Positions 737-58,127 of a DNA stretch of 64,000 bases are shown here, in pieces. This DNA comes from Patescibacteria group bacterium (GTDB lineage Bacteria > Patescibacteriota > Patescibacteriia > Magasanikbacterales > UBA922): contig JBAZIZ010000001.1 of the NCBI GenBank assembly GCA_041651535.1, forward strand, positions 96,368-160,367, given 5' to 3'. Positions within the stretch are counted from its first letter, which is position 1. Each line of letters starts with the position of its first letter. The position numbers and the translations under genes are program-made. The notes under the pieces were generated by a model. It searched no databases and was not told the origin of the DNA. It saw nothing but the letters and a program-made list of their open reading frames with translations.

Positions 737-765
737 TTGACTTACAAAAAACTATATGTTATACT
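737..765 (+). promoter_or_regulatory. sigma70-like promoter TTGACT-N17-(TG)TTATACT upstream of the tRNA fragment / GIY-YIG / intron-tRNA unit
   Basis: TTGACT at 737-742, 17-nt spacer, extended -10 TGTTATACT ending at 765; the same ATATGTTATAnT motif recurs at 56241-56252, 57531-57543 and ~57594-57603. Confidence 0.4.
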
Positions 766-815: not shown

Positions 816-883
816 TCGGCGGTAGCTCAGCGGTACCTGCCTGCCGGTTTACATACCGTTAGGTATGCAGGCAGGGAGCAACC
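816..883 (+). other. partial duplicate of tRNA-Asn 5' portion (positions 1-28) interrupted by a 40-nt hairpin element in the D-loop
   Basis: 816-835 identical to 1152-1171 (TCGGCGGTAGCTCAGCGGTA); 876-883 GAGCAACC matches 1172-1179 GAGCAACT; the 40 nt between them is absent from the intact gene. Confidence 0.6.
836..875 (+). repeat. 40-nt GC-rich nested-hairpin element (CCTGCCTGC-CGGTTTA-CATACC-GTTA-GGTATG-CAGGCAGG)
   Basis: perfect 9-bp outer stem and 6-bp inner stem; a second 40-nt copy with compensatory substitutions at 57989-58028; simpler relative at 47899-47918. Confidence 0.6.
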
Positions 884-892
884 AAATAAAAT

Positions 893-1078
893 ATGTATAA
901 AATATATATTATACAAAGTGAGAAAAATAATTTTTTATATGTAGGGCTAACATCGAATTTAGAAATTCGATTAAAATACCACAATCAAGGTAGAGTATTT
1001 TCAACAAAAGGTTATCGATCATGGAAATTAGTTTACACTGAAGAAGTTGAAACCAGACAAGAAGCAAGAAAAAGATAA
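893..1078 (+). CDS. small GIY-YIG nuclease-domain protein (COG2827/YhbQ-like), interrupted by an in-frame TAA; reading frame continues to 1144
   Basis: YIYIIQS...FLYVGLTSNLEIRLKYHNQG...WKLVYTEE is a GIY-YIG signature; after the TAA at 1076-1078 the same frame reads KYFKSGCGKEFIKNFLYKPAI, restoring the typical ~82-aa length. Confidence 0.6.
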   Translation: MYKIYIIQSEKNNFLYVGLTSNLEIRLKYHNQGRVFSTKGYRSWKLVYTEEVETRQEARKR

Positions 1079-1151
1079 AAATACTTTAAAAGTGGTTGTG
1101 GTAAGGAGTTTATTAAAAACTTTTTATACAAACCAGCAATTTAAAATTTAT

Positions 1152-1524
1152 TCGGCGGTAGCTCAGCGGTAGAGCAACTGGCTGTCGAAATGTGGCAGCT
1201 CTTGATAGAAATATCAGGATGAAAAACGAAGTGAATTGACAGGAAACCTTTTCTCGACTTAGTCGGGATGGTAATCTGCAGCCAAGTCTTAAATTATATC
1301 CCGTTGTAAAGGCGGAAAAATATTGTTTAAGAAAGGTTCAGAGACTATCTCATTTTGAGAGTAGTCTTCCGATATATTATCGGAAGCCGAAGCGCTTCGC
1401 ACCCGTAACGCTCTTGGAAATAAACCAGGTAAATGGCGTGGGTGATAAAATAGTCCAGTCTTTTTTGAAAAAAGAAGAAATAACTGTAACCAGTGGGTCG
1501 TGGGTTCGAGCCCCACTCGCCGAG
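1152..1524 (+). tRNA. tRNA-Asn(GUU) split by a 301-nt group I intron in the anticodon loop (exons 1152-1185 and 1487-1524; 73-nt mature tRNA, no encoded CCA)
   Basis: acceptor TCGGCGG/TCGCCGA pairs 7/7; D arm GCTC-AGCGGTA-GAGC; anticodon stem ACTGG/CCAGT; spliced loop CU-GUU-AA; T arm GTGGG-TTCGAGC-CCCAC; discriminator G. Confidence 0.7.
1186..1486 (+). ncRNA. group I self-splicing intron
   Basis: P1: exon GCUGU pairs intron GCAGC (1195-1199) with U.G at the splice site; P/Q/R/S-like elements AATTGACAGGAAA (1234-1246), AATCTGCAGCC (1273-1283), GGTTCAGAGACTAT (1335-1348), AAAATAGTCCAG (1448-1459) with the R/S GACTA/TAGTC P7 pairing; intron ends in G1486. Confidence 0.75.
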
Positions 1525-22585: not shown

Positions 22586-22637
22586 AAAACCCCAGACCAG
22601 CCGGACCTTGCGGTCCTATATTTGTTTCCAAATATAA

Positions 22638-22682
22638 CTCGTTGAAAAGTCGCTGATCTTGGGGATCAGTATTTTCAACGAG
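22638..22682. other. nested palindrome CTCGTTGAAAA-[CTGATC ttgggg GATCAG]-TTTTCAACGAG; candidate att core or operator for the adjacent serine recombinase
   Basis: perfect 11-bp outer inverted repeat enclosing a 6-bp inner one; in the divergent intergenic region upstream of the recombinase; further small palindromes nearby (CTCATAAA..TTTATGAG, GACGCGTC). Confidence 0.3.
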
Positions 22683-22913
22683 GTTTCATACCATGCTCAT
22701 AAAAATTTATGAGTTTAGGTATCTGGTATTATCCAGTGTTAATTGTAATTACATTTTAACTTAAAAAAGCTAAAATGTCCAATTTAATAATAGCTTAGAT
22801 ATTGATTTTTGCGAAGTCTAGTTACCAACAGTTTACCTACTTCCCTACTGGACGACAGGAACGGGACGCGTCATTAATGTAAGTAATAAGATAATAATTT
22901 TTAATTTAATATC

Positions 22914-35039: not shown

Positions 35040-35043
35040 CTGC

Positions 35044-35114
35044 TCGGGGACAGGGATTCGAACCCCGATAGCCAGGACCAAAACCTGGAGTCCTACCGTT
35101 AGACGATCCCCGAA
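35044..35114 (-). tRNA. tRNA-Gln(UUG)
   Basis: reverse complement TCGGGGA-TC-GTCT-AACGGTA-GGAC-T-CCAGG-TTTTGGT-CCTGG-CTAT-CGGGG-TTCGAAT-CCCTG-TCCCCGA-G; U1:A72 as in many tRNA-Gln; anticodon UUG. Confidence 0.8.
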
Positions 35115-35594
35115 TATTGTATATATTATTAAATTGTAATTTTCACAAAACTCACATGTTTGTTTACATACCGTTAGACCCGTCCGCCATGGCTTCGCCG
35201 TAGGCGTGCCGGGCGGGCGATCCCCGAATATTGTATATATTATTAAATTGTAATTTTCACAAAACTCACATGTTTGTTTACATACCGTTAGACCCGTCCG
35301 CCATGGCTTCGCCGTAGGCGTGCCGGGCGGGCAATCCCCGAATATTGTATATATTATTAAATTGTAATTTTCACAAAACTCACATGTTTGTTTACATACC
35401 GTTAGACCCGTCCGCCATGGCTTCGCCGTAGGCGTGCCGGGCGGGCGATCCCCGAATATTGTATATATTATTAAATTGTAAATTTCACAAAACTCACATG
35501 TTTGTTTACATACCGTTAGACCCGTCCGCCATGGCTTCGCCGTAGGCGTGCCGGGCGGGCGATCCCCGAATATTGTATTTTAACAAAAAATTAT
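35115..35594. repeat. four tandem copies of a 120-bp unit, each ending in the tRNA-Gln 5' end (positions 1-10)
   Basis: units at 35115-35234, 35235-35354, 35355-35474, 35475-35594 are near-identical; on the tRNA strand each reads tRNA[1-10] + 39-nt GC-rich segment + tRNA[11-20] + AT-rich tail; the trailing copy is truncated. Confidence 0.8.
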
Positions 35595-47898: not shown

Positions 47899-47918
47899 CC
47901 TGCCTACCGGCAGGCAGG
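47899..47918. terminator. GC-rich hairpin CCTGCCT-ACCGGC-AGGCAGG between convergent genes (bidirectional terminator); related to the outer stem of the 40-nt hairpin elements
   Basis: 7-bp GC stem extended by TTCAA/TTGAA, followed by TTTTT. Confidence 0.5.
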
Positions 47919-57242: not shown

Positions 57243-57311
57243 AACTATTTAATATAAACTAATAAAAACAGTCTCGCAAAGACTGTTTTGTATTTTAGAA
57301 AATAAAAAAAG

Positions 57312-57390
57312 CCGTCTTCTCTTTTCTCTCCATTTTTTTATATTAAGGAGGGAAAAAATGTCTCTTCGTAGAGGAAAAGAGAAAGACGGC
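57312..57390 (+). other. ~18-bp inverted repeat (GCCGTCTTCTCTTTTC / GAAAAGAGAAAGACGGC) enclosing an AAGGAGGG RBS and the start of a 27-codon mini-ORF (MSLRRGKEKDGCVWCGWLKYLKNGEFTK)
   Basis: arms at 57312-57332 and 57372-57390; ATG at 57358; candidate regulatory hairpin or small-protein gene. Confidence 0.25.
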
Positions 57391-57700
57391 TGTGTCTGGT
57401 GTGGTTGGCTTAAATATTTAAAGAACGGAGAGTTCACAAAATGACAAGCCACCACAACCAAACATAACTTATAATGACACACTTCTCTTTTTTTGTCAAG
57501 AGCTTACAATTATATTTTATTTTAAAACTAAATATGTTATAATATATTCTGTTAATTTAATTAAAGAAAAACTTGACTTATTTATTATTTTGTTATATTA
57601 TATTAGCGTTATTATTTTAATAATTGACTGAAAGCTCAGTTGTAAACGTCTCGACGATACGTCGGAAAAGGTCCTGATTAATTATAAAAAATTTTAAAAT

Positions 57701-57773
57701 GGTCTGGTAGCTCAGTCGGTAGAGCAGCTGCCTTTTAAGCAGAAGGTCCTGGGTTCGAATCCCAGCCGGATCA
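57701..57773 (+). tRNA. tRNA-Lys(UUU)
   Basis: GGTCTGG-TA-GCTC-AGTCGGTA-GAGC-A-GCTGC-CTTTTAA-GCAGA-AGGTC-CTGGG-TTCGAAT-CCCAG-CCGGATC-A. Confidence 0.85.
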
Positions 57774-57813: not shown

Positions 57814-57988
57814 AATAAAGATTTTCAATTTAGAGCAGTCCCGACGATACGTCGGGAAAGGTCCTGGGTTCGAATCCCAGCCGGATCACAAGACAAAAAT
57901 CACTTATTTAAAGTGATTTTGTTTTTTTAATAAAGATTTTCAATTTAGAGCAGTCCCGACGATACGTCGGAAAAGGTCCTGTGGTTCG

Positions 57989-58028
57989 CCTGCCTGTCGG
58001 TTTATATGCCGTTAGGCATGTAGGCAGG
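57989..58028 (+). repeat. second 40-nt nested-hairpin element CCTGCCTG-TCGGTTTAT-ATGCC-GTTA-GGCAT-GTAGGCAGG
   Basis: same length and architecture as 836-875; inner stem changed CATACC/GGTATG to ATGCC/GGCAT (compensatory); inserted between TTCG and AATCC of the T-loop. Confidence 0.6.
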
Positions 58029-58127
58029 AATCCCAGCCGGATCACAAGACAAAAATCACTTATTTAAAGTGATTTTGTTTTTTTAAATAAAATTACAAAA
58101 ATAAAAAAATCGTTTTTAAACGATTTT

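Follow-up and report, generated by a model that had tools for sequence, protein, structure and literature searches.

What is the 40-nucleotide (nt), GC-rich hairpin that interrupts the D-loop of a duplicated tRNA-Asn fragment in a Patescibacteria genome? The hairpin lies in a 64,000-nt stretch of contig JBAZIZ010000001.1 (the window, by which we mean that whole stretch), the base composition of which is 27% G+C, and a second copy interrupts the T-loop of a tRNA-Lys fragment in the same window. An earlier note on this DNA had taken the two copies for a possible miniature mobile or intron-like element with a preference for tRNA loops. We report that the hairpin is a discrete, structure-constrained palindromic DNA element that is widely dispersed, orientation independent, precisely inserted, and able to nest, and that it recurs beside tRNA genes in company with a small GIY-YIG nuclease gene.

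The motif CCTGCCT-N-AGGCAGG matched the window at exactly two places, both on the + strand and both 40 nt long (Table 1), and gave no match in 100 dinucleotide shuffles of the window. In RNA and DNA folding alike, each 40-mer forms an outer stem of 8 bp with a 5′ bulge of 8 nt, followed by an inner stem of 6 bp that is capped by a GTTA loop (z values of about −3.6 to −4.7). Thus, pattern match, shuffles, and folding confirm the two exact copies and the common layout that had been described. The bulge reads CCGGTTTA or TCGGTTTA (C/T-CGGTTTA), and the copies differ at five positions, which comprise one compensatory pair (A20/T29 in copy 1 versus G20/C29 in copy 2), as had been noticed earlier, and three C-to-T changes, two of which yield G·T wobbles and one of which falls in the bulge. 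When the whole window was searched with a covariance model of the wider family, only three sites emerged, namely, the two 40-mers and a 20-nt form. The 20-nt form had been put forward as a shorter, terminator-like relative; it is a real relative and alone fits a simple terminator pattern. Copies 1 and 2 were not flagged as intrinsic terminators, lack a T run, and are followed by GAGCAAC and AATCCC, and that identity was rejected for them. The 20-bp core reads CCTGCCTGCC|GGCAGGCAGG, and the nested layout is CCTGCCTGCCGG^CAGGCAGG, where the caret marks the 3′ edge of the loop; compared with the 20-mer, the 39- to 41-nt form consists of CCTGCCTGCCGG, then TTTA and a small hairpin of free sequence, and then CAGGCAGG. 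We conclude that the 40-mer consists of a perfect palindrome of 20 bp and a further hairpin nested within the palindrome's loop, a relationship that, like the link to the adjacent GIY-YIG open reading frame (ORF) described below, was absent from the earlier note.

Comparison of each copy with its uninterrupted counterpart upheld the insertion points that had been read from the window. Copy 1 splits GGTA|GAGC of the tRNA-Asn D-loop, and its two flanks are identical to positions 1152 to 1171 and 1172 to 1178. Copy 2 splits TTCG|AATCC of the tRNA-Lys T-loop, with ...GGTTCG before it and AATCCCAGCCGGATCACAAG after it, and its host is the second of two tandem tRNA-Lys 3′ fragments. The empty paralogue at 57831 to 57892 equals the filled-site sequence minus the element, which indicates precise insertion and no target duplication. 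Moreover, an ENA assembly and two Logan assemblies, independent of one another, contain the locus of copy 1, base for base the same except for two substitutions, both in one assembly; the locus is therefore not an assembly artifact. Chance similarity or an artifact of assembly or library is refuted for copy 1 by the shared locus and by the empty shuffles, and more than 170 related copies with compensatory variation across unrelated projects leave it practically no standing. A sequencing adaptor or linker was likewise ruled out by the compensatory variation, the nesting, and the fixed genomic contexts.

Relatives outside the window were collected in two scans. The genome scan took one genome per species and used a pattern that fixed the bulge, the loop region, and 5 arm bases only, whereas the pattern of the metagenome scan (at least 119 contigs) forced the arms, so that conservation of the arms is judged from the genome scan. 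The genome scan gave 13 new matches in 12 loci, nearly all from metagenome-assembled genomes (MAGs) labeled Patescibacteria, and in 12 of the 13 the arms are complete or nearly so, two of them with a single-base difference. Together, the scans put the family at no fewer than 139 copies in at least 132 distinct contexts, with at least 104 distinct sequences. The family counts given below (132 contexts, 124 copies tested, and 131 loci) are drawn from the genome-scan matches and the metagenome matches listed.

The inner stem varies while remaining paired. Its sequences include CATACC/GGTATG, CATGCC/GGCATG, CCCGCC/GGCGGG, CCTACC/GGTAGG, CCAGCC/GGCTGG, CCAACC/GGTTGG, ACTGCC/GGCAGT, and others, with double-sided changes at four of the six pairs (50 cells; 53 gap-free 39-mers). 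The covariation score was reached by 0 of 500 shuffles, and controls in which the alignment was slid dropped to near zero, results that bear out the selection on hairpin structure that had been proposed. The arms and bulge are kept across genomes of 27 to 61% GC, and G·T pairs exceed A·C pairs by 19 to 7 on the given strand. One way in which such a pattern could arise is if the hairpin is kept by selection as a functional structure, either as an RNA hairpin in the leaders of tRNA operons and nuclease genes (a stabilizer, a processing block, or an insulator) or as the site of a dimeric protein; the perfectly palindromic core would suit a dimer, and the constant place between tRNA promoter and nuclease ORF, described below, would suit a leader element. 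The copies themselves fit this explanation poorly. They show no orientation preference with respect to tRNA fragments or to flanking genes (31 opposite to and 18 in the same direction as co-directional neighbors; P = 0.085, not significant, such that orientation bias was dropped as a sign of RNA function), no conserved neighboring gene accompanies them, and many lie at contig ends, as dispersed repeats do. Copies are also nested, truncated, and decayed, and no family in Rfam 15 covers the element, either at the gathering score or at permissive E values. We consider a retained function improbable. A kink-turn or protein-binding RNA was separately ruled out, as the 3′ strand has no unpaired bases.

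The distribution of the family is that of a dispersed repeat that acts at the DNA level. Among the matches listed, 118 of 132 copies lie outside ORFs of 100 amino acids or more, and about 90% sit in ordinary intergenic DNA without tRNA similarity. No flank repeat was seen in 70 of the 132 copies, and a repeat of at least 5 nt was seen in only 6; together with the empty and filled sites of the window, these flanks sustain the earlier description of a discrete miniature element, inserted precisely and without target-site duplication. Flank profiles of the copies listed gave no target motif and no conserved GTAG-like tetranucleotide. The base at −1 is rarely T (3%) and the base at +1 is rarely A (9%) in loci L004 to L134 and L146 to L180, and by eye the 20-mers of IMG/VR apparently follow the same trend. 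All-against-all clustering of the ORFs around 131 loci (0.78 Mb) found no protein family in more than five loci and no recurrent transposase. ORFs of 117 to 129 amino acids of a "four-helix-bundle" type lie 0.15 to 5 kb from copies in four loci (L013, L052, L120, and L129) and may resemble the proteins of 23S rRNA intervening sequences.

Shorter and compound forms of the element were also found. The short forms comprise the perfect palindrome of 20 bp, CCTGCCTGCCGGCAGGCAGG, and one of 23 nt that lacks the inner hairpin (L012), and copies are nested inside one another in L119, L032, L097, and L141. The 20-mer occurs 42 times in IMG/VR contigs, mostly of 54 to 68% G+C, and the core is thus not confined to the candidate phyla radiation (CPR); the 40-mer pattern gave no match in IMG/VR. 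Three of the IMG/VR 20-bp palindromes (L148, L154, and L164) are flanked by direct repeats of 7 to 14 nt, for example, CACAGAGA|PAL|CACAGAGA; these may be target duplications but lie in regions rich in short tandem repeats. Neither form was found in cultivated plasmids and phages, where a BLAST search with a 39-nt variant typical of the family, different from the copies of the window, gave chance-level matches only (E ≥ 2), and no description of the element was found in literature on its sequence, on CPR palindromic repeats, on tRNA pseudogenes, or on GIY-YIG genes with tRNAs. We conclude that the 40-mer is one of many small palindromic DNA elements that together form a large family in CPR bacteria and some other uncultivated lineages, one that has apparently not been described.

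Copy 1 is followed by an ORF for a GIY-YIG nuclease, and this arrangement recurs. Homologues of the ORF (35 to 82% identity) were chosen by protein similarity alone (94 matches, mostly Patescibacteria), and eight were picked for comparison of their loci. Every picked locus with DNA shows a common design, which runs from tRNA positions 1 to 21, through the palindrome CCTGCCTGCCGGCAGGCAGG, tRNA positions 22 to between 28 and 39, and a spacer of 5 to 19 nt, to the ATG of the GIY-YIG ORF and then the tRNA. In all ten distinct nuclease loci (the window, L039, L136, L139, L140, L141, L142, L144, L145, and L177, the last an IMG/VR contig), the palindrome or a 40- to 45-nt derivative lies exactly between A21 and the 3′ strand of the D-stem. 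In nine of the ten, the palindrome is in the 5′ tRNA fragment, 19 to 29 nt upstream of the ATG; the distance is about 40 nt in L141, where the palindrome is nested. The GIY-YIG proteins of the ten loci are 34 to 82% identical, and the tRNAs are those for Asn, Phe, Arg, and Leu. The end of the ORF ranges from 8 nt before the tRNA to 22 nt into it, and the stop codon is often the tRNA's own TAG, either U8-A9-G10 or U20-A21-G22 (the TAG spans positions 20 to 22 in L141 and L145). We conclude that the palindrome holds a constant place in the GIY-YIG/tRNA cassette.

Individual cassettes depart from the common design in informative ways. L136 has a palindrome in a second, full-length tRNA-Phe (D-loop, 1867 to 1886), and L140 has one both in the fragment and in a full-length tRNA-Asn (D-loop, 1519 to 1538), with no uninterrupted copy in 3 kb. 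The whole unit is tandemly doubled in L142, and L177 combines the cassette with a tRNA-Asn interrupted at the same place as the tRNA-Asn of the window. By inspection, the upstream fragment of L144 is closer to the tRNA-Asn allele of L142 than to the resident tRNA, which suggests that the cassette may move as a unit, as co-conversion during transfer would leave it.

At full length, the protein of the window ORF would be 83 amino acids long, all of it catalytic domain with no separate DNA-binding domain, and its nearest solved relatives are UPF0213 proteins of 96 to 107 amino acids. An in-frame TAA at 1076 to 1078 shortens the product from 83 to 61 amino acids, and the shortened product is 98% identical to P0004, a protein listed by NCBI under a Patescibacteria MAG. 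The codon is TAA in the window and two assemblies and GAA in the third (L003), indicating that the population contains alleles of the nuclease gene with and without a nonsense mutation. The ORF stops 7 nt short of the 5′ end of an intact tRNA-Asn, which carries a group I intron of 301 nt between anticodon positions 35 and 36 (RF00028, 78.8 bits, 1176 to 1477); the false tRNA-Ser that ARAGORN calls at 1439 to 1525 arises because this intron splits the real tRNA-Asn in the anticodon. The sole + strand promoter-like site before tRNA-Asn, judged by its consensus match, precedes the fragment, and a single transcription unit therefore probably comprises fragment, palindrome, ORF, and tRNA-Asn.

The preference for tRNA loops claimed in the earlier note was then held against the family as a whole. 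When the element was removed in silico, the flanks joined into a continuous tRNA-like stretch in 10 of 124 copies versus 8 of 470 shifted controls (Fisher P = 0.001), and all eight control matches were neighboring intact tRNAs. Two further cases, L041 and L073, are clear by eye, such that 10 to 12 of 124 to 132 copies, or about 8 to 9%, lie in tRNA fragments. The excess is therefore real, and the preference as a general property is not, as about 90% of copies are ordinary intergenic ones; the family comes close to the generic dispersed repeat that had been set up as the contrary outcome, except for this bias. The hosts of the 40-mers are truncated tRNA fragments of 27 to 63 nt that end at positions 28 to 43 and lie 30 to 300 nt from an intact cognate tRNA, to which they are mostly still 100% identical, and no 40-mer among the matches listed was found inside an otherwise intact tRNA. 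Six elements have the same orientation as the tRNA fragment and six the opposite, and a single tRNA position can hold the element either way round. We conclude that the tRNA bias is real, that it concerns a minority of copies, and that the hosts of 40-mers are always dead copies.

Within tRNA-derived DNA, the positions of insertion are restricted. Some 23 hairpin insertions, which include other hairpin families in L077, L086, L073, and L027, all fall in loops or helix junctions and none falls inside a stem strand, a pattern with a chance of about 1e-6 if the events were independent, which not all of them are. The junction between A21 and the 3′ strand of the D-stem holds 9 of the ~23. We conclude that unpaired positions of the cloverleaf are favored, above all the A21/D-stem junction. 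One tRNA-Met copy, in L086 (about 200 to 430, − strand), has five GC-rich hairpins, of which one is at 9|10, two stand side by side at 26|27, and the D-loop and the variable loop hold one each, and its tRNA-derived pieces are 100% identical to the intact neighbor despite the five insertions.

An insertion in a tRNA loop could also be an intron-like sequence that is removed from the transcript, as the earlier note had suggested. Such a reading draws on the full-length tRNAs that have the 20-bp core in the D-loop (the second copy of L136, and L140) and on an otherwise intact tRNA-Met in a 64% G+C IMG/VR contig (L170, 2239 to 2330), where the palindrome sits in the variable loop and forms a long arm like that of class II tRNAs. 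The last case needs no removal, as ARAGORN accepts the tRNA-Met at 92 nt, palindrome included, as well as at 72 nt after its deletion; the related L147 has the same tRNA-Met gene, further decayed. Elsewhere, the hosts in the window and of all 40-mers are truncated fragments beside intact cognates, and the elements are not removed as introns because these hosts are pseudogene fragments. Deletion of 173 CCTGCC...GGCAGG hairpins from about 0.84 Mb of loci (the window and 131 loci) restored no tRNA, the count being 50 before and 50 after. Moreover, neither a catalytic core nor a bulge-helix-bulge motif is present in the element, the ends of which are base paired to one another, and it occurs in both orientations at one tRNA position. 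Intron-like removal is contradicted for the window and is very improbable overall. Both a group I intron and a bulge-helix-bulge tRNA intron were rejected as identities, as no Rfam intron model matches over the element and 3-nt bulges are absent; the real group I intron of the locus lies at 1186 to 1486.

We favor, with slightly better than even confidence, the reading that the element is a selfish miniature palindromic DNA tied to the tRNA-gene-targeting GIY-YIG cassette, the enzyme of which would be the mobilizer. The GIY-YIG nuclease of about 80 amino acids would cut tRNA-gene DNA at or near unpaired positions, and repair would copy the cassette and duplicate the 5′ part of the tRNA, as in homing. 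The palindrome would land in the cut site of the displaced copy, where it would mark or block, and destroy, the site. Solo palindromes elsewhere would be nonautonomous copies or relics. On this scheme, copy 1 would be the cassette palindrome of the tRNA-Asn/GIY-YIG unit, the nuclease gene of which would later have gained its stop codon, and copy 2 and the tRNA-Gln and tRNA-Lys remnants would be older scars in dead tRNA copies.

Several observations weigh against the homing scheme. The nuclease activity, the cut site, and the transposition event are each putative, and a bare catalytic domain of ~80 amino acids without a DNA-binding domain makes sequence-specific homing doubtful. A GIY-YIG ORF is nearby in only 3 to 5 of about 131 loci selected by the 40-mer (it adjoins only in L039 and L118 and is 1.4 kb off in L027/L063), most copies being solo, and no nuclease gene lies near copy 2 or the tRNA-Gln array. 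The D-arm of the downstream intact tRNA is uninterrupted, and the palindrome alone therefore cannot make a locus immune to cutting; local tRNA sequence (22 to about 30) stands between palindrome and ORF, and joint arrival is thus not required. The 20-bp core also occurs in high-GC IMG/VR contigs without tRNA or GIY-YIG context. Finally, a general test of insertion into hairpin loops, made on the non-tRNA copies, was negative (the junction was in a predicted loop in 20%, versus 19% of shifted controls); insertion into any hairpin loop was accordingly dropped as a general rule, and the tRNA-specific pattern stands.

The main rival holds that the palindrome is an independent element resembling miniature inverted-repeat transposable elements (MITEs) or repetitive extragenic palindromic (REP) sequences, moved by another enzyme (e.g., a transposase of the HUH/REP-associated tyrosine transposase [RAYT] type) or by recombination. 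It would accumulate in dead tRNA copies, which are neutral, heavily transcribed, and prone to single-strand folding, and the cassette would merely create those copies. The solo copies far from any GIY-YIG gene and the absence of a nuclease near copy 2 and the tRNA-Gln array are what it would predict, as is the L170 tRNA-Met, which carries the palindrome with no GIY-YIG gene in 4 kb, and the gathering of several unrelated hairpin families in dead tRNA copies (L086, L077, and L073). Set against these are the lack of any transposase family that recurs near copies and the lack of a conserved flanking tetranucleotide of the IS200/REP type. Untargeted accumulation would also hardly fill the 21|22 site in 10 of 10 nuclease loci across tRNAs for Asn, Phe, Leu, and Arg, and in a tRNA-Pro as well (L027, with a different hairpin). 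Furthermore, most of the tRNA fragments still match the intact gene at 100%, and insertion was thus fast or coincided with duplication. We hold the independent element to be somewhat unlikely.

A fuller version of the homing scheme is more tentative, and we think it rather unlikely as a whole. In that version, the palindrome and the ~80-amino-acid GIY-YIG protein would constitute a minimal mobile element of an undescribed kind that inserts in tRNA genes at the exact border of A21 and the D-stem, uses the 3′ end of its ORF to restore the 5′ end of the tRNA, and leaves the palindrome as a mark of the cut site. The solo palindromes, the nested forms (the 40-mer included), and the hairpin-riddled dead tRNAs would be its footprints.

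The closest analogues in behavior appear to be mitochondrial and REP elements. The GC clusters of yeast mitochondria (e.g., GC42), the hairpins of sponge and fungal mitochondria, and the CPR element are all GC-rich palindromes of 30 to 45 nt in AT-rich genomes; in each, structure is more constrained than sequence, units merge or nest, and the sites are intergenic DNA and tolerant parts of RNA genes. An intron-encoded or free-standing endonuclease has been proposed to mobilize the mitochondrial elements, by a mechanism that is unsettled (PMC4478555, PMC2800124). The mitochondrial elements are organellar and unrelated in sequence to the CPR element. GC clusters carry putative AG/TAG target duplications, whereas the CPR element has none, and mitochondrial elements are not known at one fixed tRNA position or in a cassette of nuclease and tRNA, unlike the CPR element. 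With REPs and bacterial interspersed mosaic elements, the CPR element shares a short imperfect palindrome, a mostly extragenic location (118 of 132 copies intergenic, as for REP/RAYT systems), either orientation, no target duplication, and the capacity to form a single-stranded hairpin. It differs in that no GTAG-type tetranucleotide stands beside the hairpin, no Y1 (HUH) transposase was seen near copies nor any recurrent neighbor family in the 0.78 Mb around them, and the density in the window is low (3 copies in 64 kb). REPs, moreover, are species specific, whereas the sequence of the CPR element is common to many phylum-level CPR lineages. The missing tetranucleotide speaks against a REP/RAYT identity, and the missing target duplication against a MITE. 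An IS200/IS605-derived palindromic element (PATE) was rejected, given the lack of a target motif and the two orientations at the same tRNA position.

A precedent for the homing scheme is the free-standing GIY-YIG homing endonuclease SegB of T4, which is encoded in a tRNA cluster, recognizes a conserved DNA motif of tRNA genes (T-psi-C), and drives co-inheritance of itself and flanking tRNA sequence (PMC2330249). Both segB and the CPR ORF are GIY-YIG genes among tRNA genes, and the CPR ORF abuts a tRNA with a duplicated 5′ part. SegB has an additional DNA-binding region, unlike the CPR protein, which is a bare, UPF0213-like catalytic domain of ~80 amino acids with a putative role in cutting, and we know of no palindrome that accompanies Seg genes. 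The palindromic elements of Rickettsia and the Correia elements of Neisseria are nonautonomous palindromic repeats that can lie inside genes and RNA genes and fold into hairpins. Those MITEs, which are lineage specific, measure 100 to 150 bp, end in inverted repeats, and are usually flanked by a target duplication, whereas the CPR element is 20 to 45 nt long and, with arms that are inverted repeats, shows no duplication. Archaeal tRNA introns likewise are short and interrupt loops of tRNA genes, the D-loop and T-loop among them; they reside in functional tRNAs and have a bulge-helix-bulge motif cut by the splicing endonuclease, whereas the CPR element has fragment hosts, no such motif, and both orientations. 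An integron attC site was rejected, as the arms (CCTGCCTG/CAGGCAGG) are not RYYYAAC/GTTRRRY core sites, the length is 20 to 45 nt versus 57 to 141 bp, there are no arrays, and, by inspection, GTTAGGY occurs only in the loop of one subfamily. We conclude that in kind the element is miniature palindromic mobile DNA and that what is undescribed about it is the association with a minimal GIY-YIG gene at one set position of the tRNA.

The two other tRNA loci of the window are collected with the tRNA-Asn locus in Table 1. In the array that precedes tRNA-Gln, each unit runs in the order promoter region, tRNA positions 1 to 9/10, a 39-nt GC-rich nested hairpin, tRNA positions 10/11 to 21, and TGTAAAC. 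The TGTAAAC directly after A21 is the remnant of a reverse-oriented 40-nt element and, together with the D-loop of the unit, forms a 16-mer that matches copy 1 read on the other strand. By inspection, the 39-nt hairpin has the layout of the 40-mer (outer stem, 5′ bulge, and inner stem). These repeats had been reported with a related core and a 39-nt segment at position 10/11; the related 16-mer and the hairpin are real, the latter at 9|10 or 10|11 (one G can be assigned to either side of the junction), and the period is 114 bp rather than the 120 bp first given. TGTAAAC also follows a D-arm piece upstream of tRNA-Lys (57633 to 57647). We conclude that all three tRNA loci of the window bear scars of the palindrome type.

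In all three old tRNA-Lys pieces, a hairpin, TCCCGACGATACGTCGGGA, replaces the anticodon arm (57649 to 57667, 57839 to 57857, and 57954 to 57972), and GC-rich hairpins similarly stand in for an arm in L086 and in L027, where the D-arm of a full-length tRNA-Pro is affected. An inverted repeat that is long and imperfect, aaagccgtcttctcttttctctcc ... ggaaaagagaaagacggct, lies at about 57296 to 57480, between a gene end and the tRNA-Lys promoter, has no Rfam match, and is followed by a GT-rich stretch. The window also contains a LOOT RNA (RF03000) at 22603 to 22721 on the − strand (92.8 bits versus a gathering score of 46.4).

Table 1. Features of the three tRNA loci and of the palindromic elements in the window
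Feature	Position	Strand	Description
Promoter-like site	737..765	+	TTGACT-17-TATACT, TG-extended; consensus match; sole + strand site upstream of tRNA-Asn unit
tRNA-Asn 5′ fragment, positions 1-21	816..835	+	TCGGCGGTAGCTCAGCGGTA; identical to 1152-1171; acceptor 5′ strand, D-stem 5′ strand, D-loop to A21
Copy 1, 40-nt element	836..875	+	Arms CCTGCCTG/CAGGCAGG, bulge CCGGTTTA, inner hairpin CATACC-GTTA-GGTATG; covariance model 56.8 bits
tRNA-Asn fragment continued, positions 22-28	876..882	+	GAGCAAC; identical to 1172-1178; tRNA similarity stops here
GIY-YIG nuclease ORF	893..1144	+	83 codons; PF01541, 65.3 bits versus cutoff of 22.6
Intact tRNA-Asn(GUU) with group I intron	1152..1524	+	Exon 1, 1152-1185; intron, 1186-1486; exon 2, 1487-1524; borders read from sequence
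Intact tRNA-Gln(UUG)	35043..35113	−	
Tandem array preceding tRNA-Gln	35104..35578	−	4.2 units of 114 bp
16-mer	35162..35177	+	GTTTACATACCGTTAG; identical to 847-862 of copy 1; again at 35276, 35390, 35504
39-nt paralogous nested hairpin	35179..35217	+	CCCGTCCG...CGGGCGGG, inner CGCC-GTA-GGCG; again at 35293, 35407, 35521
Short 20-nt form	47899..47918	none	CCTGCCTACCGGCAGGCAGG; between convergent genes; one base off perfect palindrome; covariance model 26.4 bits
Old tRNA-Lys remnant upstream of gene	57633..57676	+	AGCTCAGT, TGTAAAC (element remnant), hairpin TCTCGACGATACGTCGGAA in place of anticodon arm, AAGGTCCTG
Intact tRNA-Lys(UUU)	57701..57773	+	
tRNA-Lys 3′ fragment, repeat 2, empty site	57831..57892	+	T-loop TTCG|AATCC uninterrupted; anticodon arm replaced by TCCCGACGATACGTCGGGA
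tRNA-Lys 3′ fragment, repeat 3, filled site	57946..58048	+	Carries copy 2
Copy 2, 40-nt element	57989..58028	+	Between T-loop G57 and A58 of tRNA-Lys 3′ fragment; covariance model 47.6 bits

CPR bacteria (Patescibacteria) have tiny genomes, in which repeats and mobile DNA are usually said to be scarce. A palindrome that is shared across many CPR lineages, nests in itself, and takes a fixed tRNA position beside a minimal nuclease would be a new marker of gene flow. The element explains the clutter of tRNA fragments around CPR tRNA genes, and such fragments also cause tRNAs to be miscalled, as with the tRNA-Ser at 1439 to 1525. The cassette protein, with only 80 residues, is also a tractable candidate for a nuclease with structure or site specificity. 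If the link to the nuclease is true, the cassette would be among the smallest self-propagating gene cassettes known and a natural case of selfish DNA that rebuilds tRNA genes. If the minimal mobile element is as proposed, there may be bacterial tRNAs that remain functional while carrying the palindrome, as in the variable arm of L170 and possibly the D-loop of L140.

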